Source of the DNA: Candidatus Woesearchaeota archaeon | GTDB taxonomy: Archaea; Nanobdellota; Nanobdellia; Pacearchaeales; UBA284 | Direction of reading: 5' to 3' | NCBI GenBank assembly: GCA_964354405.1 | Contig: CAYGZP010000002.1 | Location: forward strand, 5,061 to 69,060 | DNA: 64,000 bases | Shown: piece after piece, positions 5,046-52,029 of the stretch | Layout of the letters: each line of letters begins with the position of its first letter | Position numbering within the stretch: the stretch's first letter is position 1 | The notes under the pieces: generated by a model | Told to the model about the DNA's origin: nothing | Database searches by the model: none | What the model saw: only the letters and a program-made list of their open reading frames with translations | Program-made: the position numbers and the translations under genes

Positions 5046-5068
5046 TTTTATTTTTTAAATCTTATTGA

Positions 5069-7415: not shown

Positions 7416-8357
7416 TTACTCTTCCTTTTCTTTTTTTACTTGCACGAGTATTTCTAAAGGAAAAGCTCTTTTCAACGCGCCAGCAACTCTTGCTCTTACT
7501 TCTATGCTATCTCTTTCGGGAATATTGCGAATAATAAACTCTGGCTCTGTCCGTAATTTATCTGTCCTGATAGATTCCCATCTTGTTAGCTCGAAAGAGT
7601 AAGCATAAAGAGTTATGGGATTCTTTTGCAAACTCTTAACGAGAGGATCATTGTATGGCGCTAAACTTTCTGATGCAATCAATCCATAACAAATATTAAA
7701 AATTCTTCTTATATCCCCGTCTCTTGAGATTCCTGCAAATGATTGTTCGAGAGAGGAATTAAATAAAGCCGCAACAAATTTTTCATCTGTATGCAAATCT
7801 TTATACTCTCGCCTTAAAGGTTTTTTATCATGCTCCCCCGAGCTTGCTCTTGCTTTTTTCAATCCAATCCTATCTGTGATTAATTGAATGCTTTCTGTCA
7901 GAAGCTCATAGCGTTCTTTGTTTAGTGGACAATATATTTTTTCCTTGGCTTTTTTTACTAAATTATAAGAAAGAAGACAAATTTCATTAAAAATATCTTT
8001 ATTAACATTTGGTTTGCCAAGCTCGCGCCCATATTTTACTCTTTTAGGGACATTTGCTTCGAAAGTATTAAGATTTCTGGCTTTTTCACTTATTACCTTA
8101 GAAAAATTAGCAAGCTCGTCAACAGTATCCTCAATTACCATTATGTTAGGCCGGTCTAAGAATTCCAGTGCGTCATTTAAACTGTCTCTTGCTTCGCGTA
8201 ATTGAGCAAATTTTAGCTCCTTATAAATTCGCGCCTTGTAAATATTGTCAGTAAAGTTTTGTTGCTTAAATATGTTAGAAGTATCAGTCAAAAGTCTAGG
8301 CTCTCTTGCCACTATTTCTTTAGGACTCAAATCAATTTCCAATATGTGATTTCCCAT
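7416..8357 (-). CDS. hypothetical protein
   Basis: 313-aa ORF, first gene of the co-directional ORFan run 8357->5069. No motif recognised. Confidence 0.4.
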   Translation of the reverse strand: MGNHILEIDLSPKEIVAREPRLLTDTSNIFKQQNFTDNIYKARIYKELKFAQLREARDSLNDALEFLDRPNIMVIEDTVDELANFSKVISEKARNLNTFEANVPKRVKYGRELGKPNVNKDIFNEICLLSYNLVKKAKEKIYCPLNKERYELLTESIQLITDRIGLKKARASSGEHDKKPLRREYKDLHTDEKFVAALFNSSLEQSFAGISRDGDIRRIFNICYGLIASESLAPYNDPLVKSLQKNPITLYAYSFELTRWESIRTDKLRTEPEFIIRNIPERDSIEVRARVAGALKRAFPLEILVQVKKEKEE

Positions 8358-8419
8358 CTTAGCTCAGATTTAACATTTAATTGAAATATTTAAAGATTTA
8401 TTCAGAAACAAGGGGCTTA

Positions 8420-8899
8420 TTATTTCTTGTCTTCTTCCTTTACTTCTGGCTTGGTTTCTTTAGTCTCTTCTTTCGCCTCGGTTTTTGCCTCGCCTTCTGT
8501 TTTTGTTTCAGCCTTAGCCTCTTTCTTTCCAAAAATCTCTTCAAAACTTTTCGCGCCTTCTTTCGAGACTTTCAAGTTGATTTGAATAATGTCATCGGCG
8601 ATTGTGTTTCCCCTGACAAGTTTTCTCAATCTTAATCCTTGGGGCTTTTTTGTCTTCATTCCTTTTCCTCTAGTCAAAAGCAATCGTTTTCTTCCGACAC
8701 CTTCAACTTGTGAGAGCGCTGGGAATCCCGCCTTGTCGCTCGCCCCTGTGATTACAAACTCGTAGCCCTCTAATTTTGGCTCAAAATCTTTGCCCTCAAC
8801 TTTTTCTCCAAGCTTCTTGCCGACAAAAACATCGCTGCCCGAGTCTAAGTGCACAGTTCTCTTGCTTTTAGGATCTCCAATGTCTAATTTGAATGGCAT
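8420..8899 (-). CDS. rps6e: 30S ribosomal protein S6e
   Basis: 'ITGASDKAGFPA' and 'RKRLLLTRGKG...LRLRKLVRGN' match the S6e family. C-terminal K/E/T-rich low-complexity tail. Confidence 0.85.
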   Translation of the reverse strand: MPFKLDIGDPKSKRTVHLDSGSDVFVGKKLGEKVEGKDFEPKLEGYEFVITGASDKAGFPALSQVEGVGRKRLLLTRGKGMKTKKPQGLRLRKLVRGNTIADDIIQINLKVSKEGAKSFEEIFGKKEAKAETKTEGEAKTEAKEETKETKPEVKEEDKK

Positions 8900-18092: not shown

Positions 18093-19400
18093 ATGAAAAA
18101 CACAAATCAAATATTGGCAAACGTTGTAAAGAAGATAACATCTTCTTCAGAGGAAAGAACAAATATAAATAAGATTCTCTCAACCTTCGAAGCAAAGTTA
18201 AGGCCAAAGTTAAAGAAATATGGCGCAAAGATATTCATTGGTGGCTCTCTAGCCAAGCAAACTCTTGTGAAAAGAGATTCAGACACAAGCTATGACATTG
18301 ACATTTTTATCCCGTTTCCATACAGTAAGTTCAAGAACAAGTCTTCAAAATTATCTGATTTCCTACAACAATCTCTCAAAAATGCGAAAATTAATTATTC
18401 TATGTTAAAGGGCTCGAGAAATTATTTCCAAGTCAAGTTCAAAAATTTAACTCTTGAATTAATTCCTATTCTCGCAATAAAGAAAGCCAGCGAAGCATTG
18501 AATATCACAGACATCTCGCCCTTACATGTTTCCTATGTTCTAGGCAAGATTAAGAAAAATAAAAAGCTCAGTGATGAAATCAAGCTCGCAAAAGCTTTCT
18601 GTTATGCTAGCGATTGTTATGGAGCGGAGAGCTACATCAGAGGATTCTCAGGCTATGCTCTCGAAGTTCTTGTAAGTTATTATGGCTCATTCCTTAAGTT
18701 CCTCAGTAATGCGGTTAAATGGAAAATCCCGAAAAGTTTTGAAACCCGAATCATCATTGATCCAAAACATTATTACAAATTGAAACAACAGTTACTCAAA
18801 GAAATGAACGAAGCCAAGCTACACTCGCCAATAATTCTTGTTGATCCTGTCCAGAAAGAAAGAAATGCCTGCGCTGCATTAAGTTTTGAAACCCTCAAGA
18901 AATTTATAGAAGTAAGCAAGAAATTCCTCGCTCATCCATCAGAATCTTACTTTTTTAAGGAAAAAATTAACATTGATAAGTTGAAAAGCGCAGCGAAGAA
19001 ATCAAGAGCAAAGTTTATCACATTAAAAGCATCAAGCTTCAAGAATAAGATTGATGTCGCTGGCGCAAAGCTCAAAAAATTATATGAGTTTTTGTATTTC
19101 TCGCTAAAGAAAAATGGTTTTAAAGTCTTGAAAGGCGAATTTGATTTCAATGAGAAAACATATCTTGCTACATTTTACTTTATTTTGAAAGAGCCAGAGA
19201 AAAATTATATTGTTCGGGGCCCTCCATTAAATGTCCAGGAAAAATACATCAAAGCATTCAAGAAAAAATGGCCCAGGGCTTTTGTCAAGAATAATCAATT
19301 GTGGGCAAAATCCAAGAGAGATATAACAAACCTTAGAGAACTTCTCAAGTCAATTTCAAAAGCTCAGCTCAAAGAAATGGGGGTAAAAGCTATTTCTTAA
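18093..19400 (+). CDS. cca: CCA-adding enzyme (archaeal class I tRNA nucleotidyltransferase)
   Basis: 'IGGSLAKQTLVKRDSDTSYDIDIFIPF' nucleotidyltransferase motif. Size and layout match the archaeal enzyme. All six tRNA genes in the window lack an encoded CCA. Confidence 0.75.
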   Translation: MKNTNQILANVVKKITSSSEERTNINKILSTFEAKLRPKLKKYGAKIFIGGSLAKQTLVKRDSDTSYDIDIFIPFPYSKFKNKSSKLSDFLQQSLKNAKINYSMLKGSRNYFQVKFKNLTLELIPILAIKKASEALNITDISPLHVSYVLGKIKKNKKLSDEIKLAKAFCYASDCYGAESYIRGFSGYALEVLVSYYGSFLKFLSNAVKWKIPKSFETRIIIDPKHYYKLKQQLLKEMNEAKLHSPIILVDPVQKERNACAALSFETLKKFIEVSKKFLAHPSESYFFKEKINIDKLKSAAKKSRAKFITLKASSFKNKIDVAGAKLKKLYEFLYFSLKKNGFKVLKGEFDFNEKTYLATFYFILKEPEKNYIVRGPPLNVQEKYIKAFKKKWPRAFVKNNQLWAKSKRDITNLRELLKSISKAQLKEMGVKAIS

Positions 19401-19403
19401 TAA

Positions 19404-21188
19404 TTAATACAAGAACCTGTGCAAATCCTTTAGATATGTAATGTGTTGGCTGCGAATTCTCGAGAAGCGCTCTTTATTCTTTGATATTTTCTCAACATCT
19501 TTCACAATGCTCAATCCTTTCTCTCCGCTGATGACCTGAGGGAGCAAAACATAATCAGCTCCTAAGTCATATAACTTGAGAGCGTCATGGATTTTCTCAG
19601 CCGTGACTAAAACAAAAATCTTTGGATTAATTGCCTTGAGTCTTTCGATCAACAAAATGTTGTCTTTGACTTCTGGGATAGTTGATATCGCAATTTTAGC
19701 TTGTTTTACAGGCACACAATGCAAAATCTCATGGCTCATTGTGTCTCCGTAAACACAGGCGATATGCTGTACAGTGAGCGCTTTGATAATCTCTGGGTTG
19801 TAATCAATAACCATTACACTCTCCCTCAAATCGCCGAAAGCTTTCAAGAAAATTGTGCCCATTCTGTGGCATCCGAACAAGAGAATGGATTTTTGCTTGT
19901 CATGGTTGCAATGTCCCAGATTCTCTCGAGTAGAAGGCAATCCATCCAAAAAGCCGAGAACACAAGCTGTCTTGCCATAAATAGCCGCGCTAATCTTGAT
20001 TAAATAAGGTGTGAGAGCCATTGTGATTATTGCTATTAAAACAACCATATCAAATGTTGTCTGAGTCAAGATTCCAAACATCAATCCTTGTAATGCGAGG
20101 ATGAGCGAGAATTCTGAAAGCTGTCCTAAACTCAATCCAGCAAGAATGCTCGTTCTTGTCTTATAGCCGAAGATTCTTGCGAATAATGCTATGACAAAAG
20201 GCTTGATTAAAATTGTCATAACAAACAACAAGATAAACAGCAATAATTCCTTGCTTATATCAAATGAAGTGAGCCACATTCCAAGAGAGACAAAGAAAAT
20301 TATGGCGAAAAAATCATGCAAGGGTTTGATTTTGCTTTCTATCTCAAGTTTATATGGAAGGTTGGCAAGAGCAATGCCAGCGATAAATGCTCCGATGACT
20401 ATTGACAAGTTCAAGAAATATGCTAAAGCCGCGAAAGACAGGACAAATGCTATCGAGACTATGAATAAAAGTTCAGTATTTGTCGAGGCAAATTTGAAAA
20501 TTGGCCCGAGCAGAGTTTTGTTCAACAAATAAGCAATTGACATTATCAAAGCGATTTTAACTATTGCGATTAAAATAAGATTGCTAGAAAAATTCGAAGA
20601 GAGGATTGCCAAAGCAATTATTGCTGCAAAATCCTGCAGAACAAGAATTCCCACAGCTATTCTCGCATGCAAGGTGTTTAATTCTCTATTGTCAGCGAAA
20701 ACCTTCACAACAATGATAGTGGAGCTGAAAGCAATTATGAATGCCAAATAAGCAGCTTCAATAATTGCAAATCCCAAAGCCTGAGTAATGAAAAAAGTTG
20801 CAGCCCCTATGACAATAATCTGCAGCAATCCGATGATTAGAGAACTCGAGGTTTCTTTCAATTTCGAGGCTGAAATTTCCAAGCCAGCAACAAACAACAA
20901 GAAAGCTATTCCCATCTCAGCCAAAGCCGCGATTAACGAGGTGTTTTTCACGAGTCCAAGAACCAAGGGCCCGATTATGACTCCTGTTAAAATATAAGCT
21001 GGAATGAGCTCTTGTTTCAGAGCTCTCAAGATAAATGCGAATATCGCCGCGACAATGATGATAGTTGCAATGCTGATGAGAATCGATTGATTAGTGGGCA
21101 CAAGCAACAAAGATTCTTGGAAAGAAGAAATTCCATGAGATATAACAGATACAGCATTTCCAGTGATTGTTCCAAAACTCATTTTCAC
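19404..21188 (-). CDS. Kef-type cation:proton antiporter (CPA2) with C-terminal RCK/TrkA-N domain
   Basis: About 12 hydrophobic helices, followed by a Rossmann-like 'ILLFGCHRMGTIF...VMVIDYN'. Confidence 0.75.
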   Translation of the reverse strand: MKMSFGTITGNAVSVISHGISSFQESLLLVPTNQSILISIATIIIVAAIFAFILRALKQELIPAYILTGVIIGPLVLGLVKNTSLIAALAEMGIAFLLFVAGLEISASKLKETSSSLIIGLLQIIVIGAATFFITQALGFAIIEAAYLAFIIAFSSTIIVVKVFADNRELNTLHARIAVGILVLQDFAAIIALAILSSNFSSNLILIAIVKIALIMSIAYLLNKTLLGPIFKFASTNTELLFIVSIAFVLSFAALAYFLNLSIVIGAFIAGIALANLPYKLEIESKIKPLHDFFAIIFFVSLGMWLTSFDISKELLLFILLFVMTILIKPFVIALFARIFGYKTRTSILAGLSLGQLSEFSLILALQGLMFGILTQTTFDMVVLIAIITMALTPYLIKISAAIYGKTACVLGFLDGLPSTRENLGHCNHDKQKSILLFGCHRMGTIFLKAFGDLRESVMVIDYNPEIIKALTVQHIACVYGDTMSHEILHCVPVKQAKIAISTIPEVKDNILLIERLKAINPKIFVLVTAEKIHDALKLYDLGADYVLLPQVISGEKGLSIVKDVEKISKNKERFSRIRSQHITYLKDLHRFLY

Positions 21189-21306
21189 TCTTTTTTATCT
21201 CTATAAGTAAGAAAATTGTCATATAAAAAACTTGCTTTGTTTGCTTGTTTTGTTTGTCTTTCTTTACTTGCGTTAAATTTTTAATATACCCTTGCTATAT
21301 ATTATC

Positions 21307-21993
21307 ATGAAAAAAGGGGCGAGAGATAACAACAGAGACAGCAAAGATAATCATGATGGGAATCAGACAAAAGAGAAGAGGTTCGAAACATTATATCAGT
21401 TGTCAAAAGAAATCAAGACAGAGATGAAAAAACCCAAGCCAGAGGGCGCTGTTCTCGAGAGACTTTTCGATGAGCTTTACTTGTTTGCAACCAGAGATCA
21501 TCTGACAGGCGCATTCAACAGAAGAGTTCTAGATGAATTATTAGGACATGAAATGGAAAGGGCAATAAGACAGGGACTTCCTCTCAGTGTAATTATGTTT
21601 GATGTAGACAATTTCAAAGGCTATAATGATAAGTTTGGACATCTTCAAGGAGACATGGCACTCAAGACAGTTACAAATGTAGTTCAAAAACTCACAAGAA
21701 AAGAGGATTTTGTAGCGAGATATGGCGGCGAGGAGTTTCTCATTGTCTTGCCTGACACTGTAATCGAGAAAGCCAGAGAAATCGCCGAGCGCATAAGAAA
21801 AAAGATTTCAGAAGCAAGAATTCCTGCTGCCGGCAAGGAAGTCAAGGATGGTTTTGGAAAAATAACAGTTAGCATAGGAGTTTCTCAATTCGCAAAGAAA
21901 AAAGGCATTCATCACATGTTGCATCTCGCAGACATGGCATTGTACAGGGCAAAAGCTCTTGGAAAGAACAGAGTTTGCATAATGTTGGAATAA
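21307..21993 (+). CDS. GGDEF-domain diguanylate cyclase (stand-alone)
   Basis: 'DHLTGAFNRR', 'MFDVDNFKGYNDKFGHLQGD', 'RKEDFVARYGGEEFLIVLPDT' (an RxxD I-site five residues before GGEEF), 'SIGVS' and 'ADMALYRAKALGKNRV'. Confidence 0.85.
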   Translation: MKKGARDNNRDSKDNHDGNQTKEKRFETLYQLSKEIKTEMKKPKPEGAVLERLFDELYLFATRDHLTGAFNRRVLDELLGHEMERAIRQGLPLSVIMFDVDNFKGYNDKFGHLQGDMALKTVTNVVQKLTRKEDFVARYGGEEFLIVLPDTVIEKAREIAERIRKKISEARIPAAGKEVKDGFGKITVSIGVSQFAKKKGIHHMLHLADMALYRAKALGKNRVCIMLE

Positions 21994-22075
21994 AATTATA
22001 GAAAAATAGCGTAAGAACCCGCAAATGAAAATTCTATAGGAAATAAAAAGAAACCTATATTTCTTTACAATAATA

Positions 22076-22083
22076 TTTATAAA
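22076..22083 (+). promoter_or_regulatory. TATA-like box upstream of nrdR-nrdJ
   Basis: TTTATAAA lies about 125 nt upstream of the nrdR ATG and immediately upstream of the NrdR-box pair. Confidence 0.4.
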
Positions 22084-22087
22084 GCAG

Positions 22088-22133
22088 GCTCAACATATTG
22101 ATATTTGTTTCAAAAAACCACTATATGTTGTAT
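22088..22133 (+). promoter_or_regulatory. pair of NrdR-box-like operators
   Basis: The cores CAACATATTG (22091-22100) and CTATATGTTG (22121-22130) each match the CwAtATaTwG core of the NrdR box at 9 of 10 positions. They are near reverse complements of each other, with centres 30 bp apart. Confidence 0.5.
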
Positions 22134-22204
22134 GATATGTAGGGGTCCAATTTTATACTTAAAATTCAAAAAAGAGCTCAAAAAAGGAGATAAAGACTTG
22201 ACAA

Positions 22205-22642
22205 ATGAGATGCCCATATTGCGAGAGTGAGACAAAAGTTCTTGACAAGCGAGACACTCAAGAGCTGACTCGAAGAAGACGCGAATGCTTGAACAAGAAA
22301 TGCAGAAAGAGGTTTACAACATATGAGCGGGTTGAGACTAATGTTAAGATTATCAAAAAAGACAAGCGCCGAGAATCCTTCTCTAGAGAGAAATTGCTTA
22401 TGGGGATGACTAAAGCCTGTGAGAAAAGGCCTGTTAGCCAAGAGGCAATAGAAAAGGCTGTGAACGAGATTGAGGCAAGAGTTAGGGCTTACGGTCCAGA
22501 AGTTCCAAGCAAAGTCATAGGCGAGTTAGTCATGAAACATCTCAAAAAGCTCGATGATGTCGCGTATGTGAGATTCGCTTCTGTATATCGCGAATTCCAG
22601 GATGTGGGCGATTTCAAGAGAACTATAAAGGAGTTGGGTTAA
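22205..22642 (+). CDS. nrdR: transcriptional repressor NrdR
   Basis: N-terminal zinc ribbon '[18 protein letters not shown]...[22 protein letters not shown]' followed by an ATP-cone. Confidence 0.9.
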
Positions 22643-22673
22643 AAGAAGTAAGAGGAAAATAAAAAAGGCAAAA

Positions 22674-25625
22674 ATGAAAGAAAAAGGCAAGGGATTAGGA
22701 ACCGGCTTAGAAATTGAAGTTGACAAATATTTTTCAATGCCCTGTGGCAACCCTTATACTGATGAAAAAAAGATTATAGATTATGCTCCAAAAGAAGTTG
22801 TAATTACAGATGATTCTGGAAATATTGTTGAGAAAATTCCTGGGGCGATATTTCCTTCGTTCTGGAGCCAGCATGCCGCGAATACAGTGGCAACAAAATA
22901 TTTCAGACGAGCGGGTGTGCCAGAAACCAATAGAGAGATAGACATAAAGCAATTGACAGGAAGAGTTTCAAAGAAAATCGCACAATGGGCTTTAGAGCAA
23001 GGATATGTTAATGAAAAAAATGCCAAGGTTCTTGAAGATGAGATTACAGCAGCTACATTGTTTCAGTATGGCGCGTTTAATTCTCCAGTTTGGTTTAATC
23101 TAGGATTAGATTATTACGGCACAAAACAAGATGACATTGGTTATTATGTTGAAAATGGAAAAGTTGTTCAGGCAAAGAACTATGCAGAACATCCGCAAAT
23201 CTCAGCATGTTTCATAGTTTCTCCAGAGGATTCCATAGAAAGCATGATGCGGGTTGGAGCATTAACTTCTTCGAGAATATTTAAAGGGGGCTCTGGAACA
23301 GGTGGTTATTGGGGTAACGTGCGGTCTGAAGGAGAACCTGTAAGTGGTGGAGGTTATGCCTCTGGTGCAATTAGATTTATGGATGTTCAGGATTCTTGCG
23401 GGAGAGTTATAAAATCTGGAGGAAAGACAAGGCGAGCAGCGACAATGCAAATCATAGCAGTTTGGCATCCAGACATGCCCGAGATATTGAAACATAAATA
23501 CAAGGAAGAGGAAAAAGCCCGAAGGCTTATAGAAGCGGGCTCTTCAGGCAACTGGGAAAGTCACACAATCCAAGATTTGAGAGCGCAAAATGTTAATATC
23601 TCTATCAGAACAGATGACGAATTCTGGAAAGCTTATGAGAACAACGGCGTTTACGCTTTCAGACGAGTGTTAGATAATAAAACAGTCAGGGAAAAACCAG
23701 CCAGAGAAATAGCAGAATGGATGGCCTTTGCGACATACAATTGTGGCGATCCTGGCATGCAATATCACTCAACTATAAACAGATGGAACACCTGCAAAAA
23801 TTCCGGGGAGATATGGGCATCAAATCCATGTTCCGAGTACATGTTTCTGAATAACTCAGCATGCAATCTTGCCTCACTGAACTTGATGAGGTTCCGAGGC
23901 TTAGATGGAACCTTCGACAGCGAATCTTTCTGCAAAGCAGTTGATTTATATGTCACATGTCAAGATGTTTTTGTTTCAAAGGCATCTTATCCTATAGAAG
24001 AAATCGCGTTGAACAGTCATATTTTCAGACCTCTTGGCCTTGGCTATGCGAATTTAGGGGCATACATAATGTCGTTGGGATTAGCTTATGATTCAAAAGA
24101 AGCCCGAGATTTTGCAGCTGCTGTTACATCCTTAATGACTGCAGAGGCTTATTTACAGTCGACAAAACTTTCTGAGAGGCTAGGATCATTCCAGGAATTC
24201 GAAAAGAATCGAGAGCCTATGCTTGAGGTGATGGAAATGCATAGGGCCGCGGCAAAGAAGATTCCTGTGAGGAATGGTTTGGAAGACATAATCAAAACAG
24301 CAACGAAAAAATGGGATGAGGTGATTGAGCGCGGAGAAAAATATGGATTCAGAAATGCTCAAGTAACATTGCTCGCGCCGACGGGCACAATAGGATATAT
24401 GATGGGTTGCGACACTACAGGCTGCGAGCCCTCTTACGCATTAAAAGTCTACAAAGAACTTGCGGGGGGAGGTTCCATGACTATAGTAAACCAAACAGTT
24501 CCTCTCGCCTTGGAAAAATTAGGCTATAGCAAGGAAGATATCACAAAAATAGTGGATTATGTCGACAAAAATGAAACTGCCGAAGGTTGCGAGAATCTTA
24601 AAGAAGAGCATTTGCCAGTTTTTGACTGTGCAGCTGTCGCAGGAAGGGGCACAAGGGCCATCATGCCGATGGGCCACATAGAGATGCTTGGAGCAATTCA
24701 GCCGCATCTTTCAGGAGCTATTTCAAAAACAATAAACTGCCCAGCCATAACATCAGTCGAAGAGATTAAGAATATGTTTTATCAAGGATGGAGGTTAGGA
24801 ACAAAGGCTTTAGCTATATACAGAGACGGGAGCAAGGCTTCTCAGCCATTGAAAACAAAAAAATCCAGCAGTGTTGAAGTTCTTGTAAGGGGCCAGCGAG
24901 AACATGTTCCTAGATTTAGATATGCTGTAAGGGAAAAATTCAAGATAGCAGACCTTCCTATATTTTTATCAACAGGAGAATATACTGATGGCAGATTAGG
25001 GGAACTTTTCATCGACTCTTTTGAAAGAGGAAGCGAAGTCAACAGGCTATTGAACGAGCTCGCGATACAATTTTCTGAAAAAATTCAGTATGGCGTGCCT
25101 CTCGAAGAGGCTATAGAACTTTTCAATAAGGCAGGCTCGTCACAAATCTCTGGGGTAACTAATCATGAATTTATCAAGACTGCGAGAGGCATAGAGGGTT
25201 TTATCTATGACTGGCTTCGAGCACATTATCTTGGAGATATCTCATTTGTTTCGAAAAATCCAGAGATGAGACCCCTGCCTTGGGAATTAAGGGTTTATCA
25301 AAGAGTCCCCAAGCTCCATTTGATTCCTACAGTTGCCGGTGAAGGGTTTTATCCTGGTTCACCAAGCCTCGAAGAAACCATAGGTAAAATTTCTAAGATA
25401 AATTACTGGTGTGATGAGGAAGAAAACTTGGACACTCGACAGACAATAGAAAAAATAAAGAGAGATAGGGTTTGGGGCAGAGATGCTGAATTTGCCGACA
25501 GCAATCAAGCTAATAAAATTACAGGACAAACCTGCCCCCATTGCGGAATCCTTATGATACAAGATGGAAATTGCTTGAAATGTCCTAAATGTAAACAATC
25601 AACTAGTGGCTGTGGTGGTGGATAA
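22674..25625 (+). CDS. nrdJ: ribonucleotide reductase, class II (adenosylcobalamin-dependent)
   Basis: 'NPCSEYMFLNNSACNLASLNL' and 'LLAPTGTIGYMMGCDTTGCEPSYA'. C-terminal zinc ribbon 'CPHCG...CLKCPKC'. No ATP-cone. Confidence 0.85.
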   Translation: MKEKGKGLGTGLEIEVDKYFSMPCGNPYTDEKKIIDYAPKEVVITDDSGNIVEKIPGAIFPSFWSQHAANTVATKYFRRAGVPETNREIDIKQLTGRVSKKIAQWALEQGYVNEKNAKVLEDEITAATLFQYGAFNSPVWFNLGLDYYGTKQDDIGYYVENGKVVQAKNYAEHPQISACFIVSPEDSIESMMRVGALTSSRIFKGGSGTGGYWGNVRSEGEPVSGGGYASGAIRFMDVQDSCGRVIKSGGKTRRAATMQIIAVWHPDMPEILKHKYKEEEKARRLIEAGSSGNWESHTIQDLRAQNVNISIRTDDEFWKAYENNGVYAFRRVLDNKTVREKPAREIAEWMAFATYNCGDPGMQYHSTINRWNTCKNSGEIWASNPCSEYMFLNNSACNLASLNLMRFRGLDGTFDSESFCKAVDLYVTCQDVFVSKASYPIEEIALNSHIFRPLGLGYANLGAYIMSLGLAYDSKEARDFAAAVTSLMTAEAYLQSTKLSERLGSFQEFEKNREPMLEVMEMHRAAAKKIPVRNGLEDIIKTATKKWDEVIERGEKYGFRNAQVTLLAPTGTIGYMMGCDTTGCEPSYALKVYKELAGGGSMTIVNQTVPLALEKLGYSKEDITKIVDYVDKNETAEGCENLKEEHLPVFDCAAVAGRGTRAIMPMGHIEMLGAIQPHLSGAISKTINCPAITSVEEIKNMFYQGWRLGTKALAIYRDGSKASQPLKTKKSSSVEVLVRGQREHVPRFRYAVREKFKIADLPIFLSTGEYTDGRLGELFIDSFERGSEVNRLLNELAIQFSEKIQYGVPLEEAIELFNKAGSSQISGVTNHEFIKTARGIEGFIYDWLRAHYLGDISFVSKNPEMRPLPWELRVYQRVPKLHLIPTVAGEGFYPGSPSLEETIGKISKINYWCDEEENLDTRQTIEKIKRDRVWGRDAEFADSNQANKITGQTCPHCGILMIQDGNCLKCPKCKQSTSGCGGG

Positions 25626-50602: not shown

Positions 50603-51108
50603 AAACGGAGTTTAACATGAAGAAAGAAACAAGGACTTACAACGATAGGAGAAGATATATCATTGAAGCAGTGGCCAAGAGAAGAAAGAAAATCCGTCTA
50701 AAAGCAGTAGAACATTTGGGCGGGAAATGTATACGATGTGGATATAATAAATATCCAGAAGTGCTTGAATTTCACCATAGAGATCCTTTGAAGAAGGAGT
50801 TCAACGTTTCAAGCAAAGGCCATTGTCGAAGTTGGGAGAGAGTCCAAAAAGAAATAGAAAAATGCGATTTGTTTTGTGCAAATTGCCACAGAGAAGTTCA
50901 TGTTAAGCTAAATAAGTTAGCAGCTTCTCAAGGAAACTTGGGAATGAACAGCGAGTAAATTCAGGGAAACCCTAACGTAAAGTCGAGGGCAATCCTGAGC
51001 CAAGCCTCGAAAGAGGAAGGTGCAGAGACTAGACACTCGCCACCTAAAACTTAGAAATAAGTAATGGTGAAGGTATAGTCCTACCCTCTAAGAAATTGGA
51101 GAAGGTCG
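50603..51108 (+). mobile_element. group I intron (IC3-like core) with HNH endonuclease ORF
   Basis: P3 GCGAGT (50951-56) pairs with ACTCGC (51035-40). P4 CAGG (50962-65) pairs with CCTG (50994-97). 'GGGAAACCCTAA' and 'AATCCTGAGCCAAGCC' are present. P6 is CCTC-GAAA-GAGG (51005-16). 'GGAAGGTGCAGAGACTAGAC' contains P7 GACTA (51027-31), which pairs with TAGTC (51076-80). P8 is ACTTA-GAAA-TAAGT (51049-62). The intron ends ..TCG (terminal G at 51108) and follows a U. Confidence 0.8.
50617..50958 (+). CDS. HNH homing-endonuclease-like protein (intron-encoded)
   Basis: 'GGKCIRCGYNKYPEVLEFHHRDP...KCDLFCANCHREVH' is the CxxC...HH...N...CxxCH HNH zinc-finger layout. The stop codon lies at the P3/J3-4 boundary of the intron core. 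Confidence 0.75.
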   Translation: MKKETRTYNDRRRYIIEAVAKRRKKIRLKAVEHLGGKCIRCGYNKYPEVLEFHHRDPLKKEFNVSSKGHCRSWERVQKEIEKCDLFCANCHREVHVKLNKLAASQGNLGMNSE

Positions 51109-51864: not shown

Positions 51865-52029
51865 GGGCCCGTAGCTCAGCCTGGCTTAGAGCACTGCTCT
51901 GATATTGGTTACAGCCTCTTCAAGAGGTGAGGAAACTGGAGCACCTTGTGCTTCACTGTAACTATATGACAAATCGCGAGATTTGTTTCAGACAGGCAGG
52001 GGTCCTGTGTTCAAATCACAGCGGGCCCA
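51865..52029 (+). tRNA. tRNA-Ile(GAT) with 89-nt canonical-position (37/38) BHB intron (51905..51993)
   Basis: Acceptor GGGCCCG/CGGGCCC, D arm GCTC..GAGC, anticodon stem CTGCT/GGCAG, loop CTGATA|intron|A, T arm CTGTG-TTCAAAT-CACAG. Exon CTGA pairs with intron TCAG (51988-91), flanked by 3-nt bulges. Intron helix GTTACAG/CTGTAAC. Confidence 0.85.

Follow-up and report, generated by a model that had tools for sequence, protein, structure and literature searches.

The stretch analysed here, referred to as the window, comprises 64,000 nucleotides (positions 5,061 to 69,060 of contig CAYGZP010000002.1, assembly GCA_964354405.1) from an archaeon deposited as Candidatus Woesearchaeota and assigned to the order Pacearchaeales. 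On its forward strand it carries a short gene, hereafter GGDEF1, whose product was read in a first-pass annotation of the DNA as an intact GGDEF diguanylate cyclase. Diguanylate cyclases act as homodimers that make cyclic di-GMP (c-di-GMP) out of two GTP molecules. The source genome (G000, with contigs C1 and C2 mentioned below; G and L numbers designate the genomes and loci compared) measures 0.83 Mb in 51 contigs and is 98% complete, the window lying on a contig of 192 kb.

An intact GGDEF domain with a conserved active site and inhibitory site

The profile search bore out the reading of the open reading frame. The PF00990 model was covered over its full length (1-161 of 161) with 151.3 bits (E 2.5e-44, cut-off 23.8), and TIGR00254 was matched with 169.4 bits (cut-off 37.4). 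The longest frame opens at a TTG codon at 21292, and the alignment of orthologues favours the ATG at 21307 (Table 1). All the motifs previously listed for the protein can be read in its sequence, namely GGEEF, the RxxD inhibitory site (I-site) five residues upstream, FDVDNFKGYND (residues 98-108) and SIGVS (residues 189-193). The spacer between RKED and GGEEF is exactly five residues long, FVARY.

Residue conservation was determined on an alignment of 48 sequences, about 45 of which are archaeal orthologues. Residues D64, L66, T67, N71, D99, D101, K104, N107, D108, H112, G115, R131, R138, G141, E142, E143, F144, G191, D209, K216, G219 and N221 are invariant in this alignment, while D116 and D134 are conserved in at least 90% of the sequences. 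This set spans the wide-turn DxLT, the metal-binding aspartates, the guanine-selecting N107 and D116, the I-site, the active-site hairpin and the transition-state residue K216, the roles being those established for PleD and WspR, which we take to hold here from the alignment with WspR and GcbC. In the Hypr subgroup of GGDEF enzymes, a serine replaces the guanine-pairing aspartate (D344, PleD numbering). The catalytic and allosteric residues of GGDEF1 are under purifying conservation across the approximately 45 archaeal orthologues.

The nearest solved relatives, GcbC (5EUH, 2.6e-34), WspR, 3IGN, PleD, DosC and DgcZ, are proven cyclases. Compared with PleD and WspR (1W25, 2V0N, 3BRE), GGDEF1 displays an identical GGEEF, the same RxxD spacing and the same metal- and guanine-binding residues, but it lacks the REC input domain and is about half their size. 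Profile coverage, residue conservation and the structural model described below support the reading of GGDEF1 as an intact GGDEF diguanylate cyclase that has an RxxD I-site and lacks a recognisable sensor domain.

A conserved helical stalk in place of a sensor domain

A monomeric model of GGDEF1, obtained with AlphaFold2 (AF2) using the orthologue alignment as input, adopts the canonical GGDEF fold with a predicted local distance difference test score (pLDDT) of 93 and a predicted template modelling score of 0.82. The N-terminal region of about 70 residues had been described as low-complexity sequence without an input domain. This description stands in part: no sensor domain was found and residues 1 to about 20 are predicted to be disordered (pLDDT about 60), but residues 22-62 harbor a conserved helix-PKP-helix module. 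Its consensus in the orthologue alignment is KRFxxLxxLSKExKxEIKK, PKPE and xLExLFNELYxxAT, followed by DHLTG, and the two helices (residues 16-40 and 47-62) were modelled with a pLDDT of 86-95. The tail that precedes the module varies between 0 and 50 residues among the orthologues, is variable in sequence and is often poly-lysine. One may speculate that this basic tail aids association with the membrane or with a partner.

A Foldseek search with the model returned 177 matches in the PDB at E<=0.001. The top match was 3IGN, with a target-normalised template modelling (TM) score of 0.90 and a root-mean-square deviation of 1.8. Further matches were DgcB from Caulobacter (6TTR, a coiled-coil-GGDEF construct), the GCN4-WspR chimera (3I5C) and SiaD (7E6G). 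On the basis of these four matches, the architecture closest to that modelled for GGDEF1 is a stalk joined to a GGDEF domain, and not a REC-, PAS- or GAF-GGDEF arrangement. DgcB, SiaD and the GCN4-WspR chimera share with GGDEF1 an N-terminal helix fused to a canonical GGDEF domain with an I-site (query-normalised TM 0.66-0.72). In enzymes of this type, activity depends on the dimer register set by the stalk and on product inhibition.

Beyond this common plan, the stalk of GGDEF1 differs from those of DgcB and SiaD in its helix-PKP-helix form and polybasic tail, a module whose conservation is limited to Pacearchaeota, and we know of no SiaC-like partner for it. The SiaD model NF038266 matched residues 50-223 with 160 bits and did not reach its equivalog cut-off of 290. 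The matches to the PleD equivalog (166 against a cut-off of 474) and to PRK09894 (159 against 256) were likewise confined to the GGDEF part. Since these scores lie far under the equivalog cut-offs, GGDEF1 falls, as judged by profile, outside the SiaD, PleD and DgcA-type NCBIfam equivalogs.

Table 1. GGDEF1, its parts and flanks, and the other c-di-GMP genes of the source genome (window positions unless a contig or locus is named).
Feature	Position	Strand	Description and basis
GGDEF1 coding sequence	21307..21993	+	228 aa plus stop; PF00990, TIGR00254; ATG start matches 43 orthologues
Disordered polar/basic tail, residues 1-21	21307..21369	+	First 20 residues modelled at pLDDT 58-61
Helix KRFETLYQLSKEIKTEMKK, PKPE loop and second helix VLERLFDELYLFAT; putative dimerisation stalk	21370..21492	+	Conservation in the clade, AF2, Foldseek
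GGDEF catalytic domain, residues 61-222	21487..21972	+	PF00990 full length; AF2 pLDDT >95; Foldseek 3IGN
Metal/substrate block FDVDNFKGYNDKFGHLQGD: D99, D101, K104, N107, D108, D116	21598..21654	+	Conservation; alignment with WspR and GcbC
I-site RKED (R131-D134)	21697..21708	+	Direct reading; aligns with WspR RSSD and GcbC RPAD
Active-site GGEEF (G140-F144)	21724..21738	+	Direct reading; G141, E142, E143 and F144 invariant
CPA2/Kef-type cation:proton antiporter with TrkA_N (RCK) domain	19404..21188	-	PF00999 176 bits, PF02254 63 bits
Divergent intergenic region Kef/GGDEF1	21189..21306	.	GC 0.24; TATA-like stretches; Ca2+-ATPase gene here in relatives
Intergenic region before nrdR, parting GGDEF1 from the NrdR-RNR unit	21994..22204	.	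GC 0.26
GGDEF2			235 aa; GGEEF and RDTD I-site; predicted stand-alone cyclase
GGDEF3			341 aa; GAF-GGDEF, GGEEF, without I-site
GGDEF4	G000 C1:327939-328304 (L004 1471-2109)	-	212 aa; degenerate GGDEF
GAF-HD-GYP phosphodiesterase	G000 C1:355900-356430 (L005 868-2076)		402 aa; intact HD and HHQRWDGAGYP

GGDEF1 belongs to an archaeal chromosome and an archaeal clade

The window encodes the archaeal core proteins aIF5B, aIF2-gamma, MCM and thermosome, and an archaeal-type CCA-adding enzyme lies two genes from GGDEF1. The composition of the gene is host-like (GC 0.40, GC 0.39 at third codon positions), with a codon usage that correlates at r=0.82 with that of eight archaeal core genes of the window. 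The approximately 45 orthologues show 50-78% identity; several were labelled Candidatus Pacearchaeota by their submitters and some lie on contigs of up to 710 kb, including one on the closed Pacearchaeota chromosome CP061211.1 (710,724 bp). The same locus is found in more than 10 independent Pacearchaeota assemblies, this closed chromosome among them. The order of a CCA gene, convergent with the Kef gene, then GGDEF1, NrdR and ribonucleotide reductase (RNR) genes on the forward strand, recurs in the independent assemblies L010 and L156 and, with added genes, in G003, G017, G034, G042, L152 and L153. Because the locus is replicated in independent assemblies and on a closed chromosome, GGDEF1 is neither chimeric nor a recent import. 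Contig chimerism around 21189-21306 or 21994-22204, which the first-pass annotation had named as the signal that would overturn its reading, left no sign in either composition or gene order.

A careful maximum-likelihood tree of GGDEF proteins (83 rows, 164 columns) contained four purely archaeal clades, with support of 100/100 for A, 100/99 for B, 99/97 for C and 100/99 for E. GGDEF1 was placed in clade A, and GGDEF2 of the same genome in clade B. None of the archaeal clades in this tree had a supported bacterial sister. Phylogeny had been proposed as the way to identify the donor of the gene, and none can be named: both a quick and the careful tree leave the backbone towards the bacteria unresolved, and the best bacterial matches belong to mixed phyla. 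The most distant archaeal orthologue shares 56% identity with GGDEF1 and no bacterial match exceeds 47%, a step at the archaeal/bacterial border from which it would follow that the acquisition or acquisitions of GGDEF are older than the diversification of these archaeal families.

Relatives keep GGDEF1 among Ca2+ transporter genes

The divergent Kef-type antiporter gene noted in the first pass was confirmed by its profile matches and is a conserved neighbour of GGDEF1 in relatives. The TATA-like stretches in the region between the two genes suggest that GGDEF1 probably has its own promoter there. Gene context was compared over 12 family-type contexts of clade A. In seven of them, a gene for a Ca2+ P-type ATPase (TIGR01522, PMR1-type, 683 bits) lies directly 5' of GGDEF1, at a distance of 4-13 bp in six cases and of about 1.9 kb in L022. 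A Ca2+/Na+ antiporter gene (TIGR00367) directly follows GGDEF1 in five contexts, with a gap of 2-46 bp in four and of about 750 bp in L021; the loci that carry this Na_Ca_ex gene where the window has its 21994-22204 spacer are L006, L008, L152, L021 and L022. Three of the 12 contexts, the window among them, have Kef as the only such neighbour.

The tight spacing in relatives implies that ATPase, GGDEF1 and antiporter genes may be co-transcribed there. The simplest reading of these gene orders would be an ancestral operon ATPase-GGDEF1-antiporter beside Kef, followed by losses, with the source genome having presumably lost both Ca2+ transporters and retained the cyclase beside Kef. A literature search for an operon link between a diguanylate cyclase and a Ca2+-ATPase returned nothing relevant.

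A related connection is described for another nucleotide: c-di-AMP controls cation transport through KtrA/CpaA-type transporters that bear an RCK_C domain (PMC10249747). Both cases tie a cyclic-dinucleotide cyclase to cation transporters, the neighbour of GGDEF1 being a CPA2 antiporter with a TrkA_N domain. The parallel is one of analogy only, as the nucleotide differs, the Kef protein displays TrkA_N with no RCK_C detected, and the genome has a c-di-AMP cyclase of its own.

Some distant or additional members of these clusters were also recorded. In a distant subclade of clade A, a gene for a RIO/Bud32-like kinase shares 4 nt with the end of the GGDEF gene, and another distant member adjoins a convergent class III nucleotidyl cyclase gene (PF00211, 469 aa); the coordinates of these distant loci are L154 5682-7091, L037 6372-6986 and L155 5582-6202. 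On the closed Pacearchaeota chromosome, the cluster of Kef, Ca2+-ATPase, GGDEF and antiporter genes also encodes two conserved proteins without Pfam or NCBIfam match (L006 2895-3311, 138 aa, and 7597-8517, 306 aa).

Other c-di-GMP genes of the source genome

Four GGDEF loci, GGDEF1 included, were found in the source genome by profile search (Table 1). GGDEF4, which is conserved across the genus, carries a 14-residue insertion ahead of its SAGDEF motif and is missing the last, C-terminal third of its domain; it is probably inactive, judging from these lesions, and could serve as a regulatory partner or receptor. The GAF-HD-GYP gene is the only HD-GYP gene (one HD_5 match in the genome) and is located on a different contig from GGDEF1. 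As previously stated, the window contains no EAL, HD-GYP or PilZ gene. A genome-wide screen for partners, which had been suggested as a check, was positive for HD-GYP and for three more GGDEF genes, so the cyclase is not isolated; on the other hand, profile searches of the genome revealed no EAL domain, no PilZ or MshEN domain and no c-di-GMP-I/II riboswitch, an Rfam scan of the window being equally negative for riboswitches. Of a canonical c-di-GMP module, the source genome thus has the phosphodiesterase, in the form of HD-GYP, and none of the known receptors.

A gene for a DAC-domain diadenylate cyclase is also present (G000 C2:80333-80671, L071, 98 bits), from which the organism probably makes c-di-AMP too. 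The idea that c-di-GMP substitutes for c-di-AMP in this organism was ruled out by the presence of this gene.

GGDEF proteins are widespread in the order and phylum

Of 301 genomes sampled from the order, 115 (38%) encode GGDEF, as do 36 of its 82 high-quality genomes; 53 of 122 genera are represented. At the level of the phylum, 190 of 401 high-quality genomes (47%) were positive, and a single genome may hold as many as six copies. The HD_5 domain was detected in 31 of the same 301 genomes, with a concentration in the family to which the window belongs; there it is carried by genomes with two to four GGDEF genes, and it is mostly missing where GGDEF is single. PilZ was found in none of the 301.

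In the largest family of the order, a single cyclase of about 195 residues is common; it falls in clade B with GGDEF2. The neighbourhood of clade B consists of conserved housekeeping genes, namely a TatD-family gene (confirmed by Pfam only for the L027 homologue) and, identified by eye only, genes for a D-aminoacyl-tRNA-deacylase-like (DTD2-like) and a diphthine-synthase-like (Dph5-like) protein. These neighbours were considered as effectors of GGDEF2 and dropped, their conservation being the positional conservation of housekeeping genes only. There are at least four purely archaeal GGDEF clades, and at least two of them keep conserved chromosomal positions.

In 2018, Galperin et al. knew of one archaeal GGDEF protein and suspected contamination behind others (PMC5847659), and a 2023 review noted the lack of any description of c-di-GMP in archaea (PMC10249747). 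Sidorov, Romling et al. (Mol Microbiol, 2026) then described archaeal GGDEF proteins, 20 of them from metagenome-assembled genomes (MAGs), mainly of DPANN archaea and several of them "GGDEF only"; in Salmonella or E. coli, assays based on the Vc2 riboswitch, on biofilm formation or on motility rated some of them as cyclases (PMC13725321). The premise of the first-pass annotation that c-di-GMP signalling is essentially bacterial is therefore outdated for this lineage, given that report and the counts above.

GGDEF1 resembles the published DPANN GGDEF-only proteins in being short, with extensions too short for a domain, in its conserved GG(D/E)EF and signature residues, and in its location on a DPANN contig with archaeal flanking genes (PMC13725321). 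It is a further member of this kind and normal for its lineage. The same study gave preliminary evidence of single GGDEF copies per chromosome and left as questions the co-occurrence of phosphodiesterases, the receptors, the origin and how widespread the proteins are (PMC13725321). With its four GGDEF genes, the source genome runs counter to the impression of single copies, and it provides an HD-GYP that co-occurs with them. The Ca2+-transporter operon context does not appear in that study, and what is new here is that relatives keep GGDEF1 within an apparent Ca2+-export operon.

The GGDEF1 locus and its comparison with relatives thus bear on spread, phosphodiesterases, receptors and outputs for one archaeal lineage, in which up to four GGDEF copies and an HD-GYP are accommodated in a genome of less than 1 Mb. 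Although no longer surprising as a discovery, GGDEF1 is a clean, small and sensor-less candidate for biochemistry, and the conserved, probably operonic tie of its clade to Ca2+ exporters offers a concrete, testable output hypothesis. Overall, our results partly support the first-pass annotation, which was right at its core, overstated the rarity of the gene and understated its N-terminal module and the c-di-GMP kit around it.

Proposed function and alternative explanations

We consider it likely that GGDEF1, native to a Pacearchaeota (DPANN) archaeon, is an active, product-inhibited diguanylate cyclase without a sensor domain, as its sequence and model suggest. According to this proposal, the conserved helix-PKP-helix stalks would bring two monomers together, each binding one GTP-Mg2+, and the pair would condense both nucleotides to c-di-GMP. 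Binding of the product at R131 and D134 of the I-site would switch the enzyme off. As GGDEF1 has a feedback I-site and no sensor domain, its output may be governed mainly by expression level and feedback rather than by ligand sensing. The GAF-HD-GYP protein would degrade the messenger, whose receptors would not be of the PilZ, MshEN or riboswitch type. In view of the presumed ancestral place of the gene between a Ca2+-ATPase and a Ca2+/Na+ antiporter, its physiological role would most likely be tied to cation (Ca2+) homeostasis or export.

A more specific version of this role can be put forward only tentatively, and we regard it as rather doubtful. In Pacearchaeota, GGDEF1 might be a dedicated regulator of cation export, chiefly of Ca2+, transcribed as one unit with the genes for a PMR1/SERCA-type Ca2+-ATPase and a CaCA antiporter beside Kef, with the cyclase or c-di-GMP acting directly on the transporters through receptors other than PilZ, MshEN or riboswitches. 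If true, this would be the first defined c-di-GMP output pathway in Archaea and a c-di-GMP counterpart to the control of ion transport by c-di-AMP, the source genome being reduced to the cyclase and Kef.

Several observations weigh against an active cyclase with such a role. Neither a Ca2+-ATPase nor a Ca2+/Na+ antiporter was found anywhere in the source genome by tblastn; a Ca2+ role is suggested by gene order in relatives and would here need Kef or another route. No receptor of known type accompanies the cyclases of this genome, and dimerisation through the N-terminal helices is proposed from a monomer model and from analogy. Even the best of the public sequencing runs contain at most 9% of the sequence words of the locus, and none of the runs is RNA. 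Among seven cloned MAG proteins, the riboswitch assay detected activity in only three, and no protein gave consistent results over all three assays (PMC13725321); c-di-GMP is stated never to have been measured in an archaeon (PMC13725321; PMC10249747).

It is improbable that GGDEF1 is enzymatically silent in vivo and serves as an I-site receptor of c-di-GMP, or as a transporter scaffold or partner through its helices and basic tail, with GGDEF2 or GGDEF3 making the messenger. The catalysis-independent phenotypes, or the lack of clear activity, of several archaeal GGDEF proteins in heterologous assays would agree with such a role, as would the tight linkage to transporter genes in relatives, the other cyclase candidates in the genome and an I-site conserved as much as the active site. 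However, the invariance of all catalytic residues in about 45 orthologues would be unexpected for a pure receptor, and true decay looks like GGDEF4, with its insertion, its SAGDEF and its C-terminal truncation. We give slightly less credit still to the formation of another product by the GGDEF fold, for instance 3',3'-cyclic GMP-AMP as in Hypr-type enzymes or c-di-AMP. Although Hypr GGDEF enzymes exist (cited in PMC13725321 and PMC10249747), the guanine-selecting pair is canonical in GGDEF1, with N107 invariant, D116 conserved in at least 90% of sequences and no Hypr serine, and a DAC-type c-di-AMP cyclase is already encoded in the genome.

A part in antiviral defence, as a signal generator akin to the Cas10 palm or a CBASS-like cyclase, is very unlikely. 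It was raised by weak matches to the Cas10 palm (PF22335, 29 bits; PADLOC Cas10, 26-31 bits), which reflect a known common fold and lie far below the GGDEF score. Moreover, GGDEF1 has no cas, CARF or effector gene beside it; its neighbours serve housekeeping or transport and are conserved from genus to genus, unlike the genes of a variable defence island. A place of GGDEF1 in a defence system was accordingly rejected, PADLOC having given weak Cas10-palm similarity only. Least credible of all is that mis-binning, a chimeric contig or a very recent horizontal transfer placed a bacterial gene here. In favour of this, the great majority of GGDEF proteins are bacterial, Galperin et al. (2018) had warned of contamination behind archaeal matches, and other bacterial-type genes occur in the window; but archaeal core genes stand on both sides on one 192-kb contig, composition and codon usage are host-like, the gene order is replicated in independent assemblies and on a closed 710-kb chromosome, identity to bacteria drops, and the archaeal clade is supported at 100/100. 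This explanation is effectively refuted.

Other features of the window

Downstream of GGDEF1, a bacterial-type NrdR gene (TIGR00244, 174 bits) followed by a class II RNR gene occupies positions 22205-25625 (+), in an archaeon. The pair is kept in relatives, where the RNR class alternates between II and III and some of the genes contain inteins. NrdR-box-like palindromes were seen by eye in the spacer at 21994-22204.

On the other side of the locus, the CCA-adding enzyme (18093-19400, +) gave sub-threshold SMODS/CBASS matches (PF18144, 37 bits; NF041116, 42 bits against a cut-off of 200). These matches are due to the common nucleotidyltransferase fold and do not denote a second cyclase.

Further along the window, Rfam placed a group I intron (RF00028, 79.3 bits) at 50894-51102, a match that extends into the 3' end of an HNH-endonuclease-like open reading frame of 113 aa (50617-50958, +); no host gene is evident. 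An intron-bearing tRNA of 165 nt is located at 51865-52029, approximately 0.8 kb 3' of this match.

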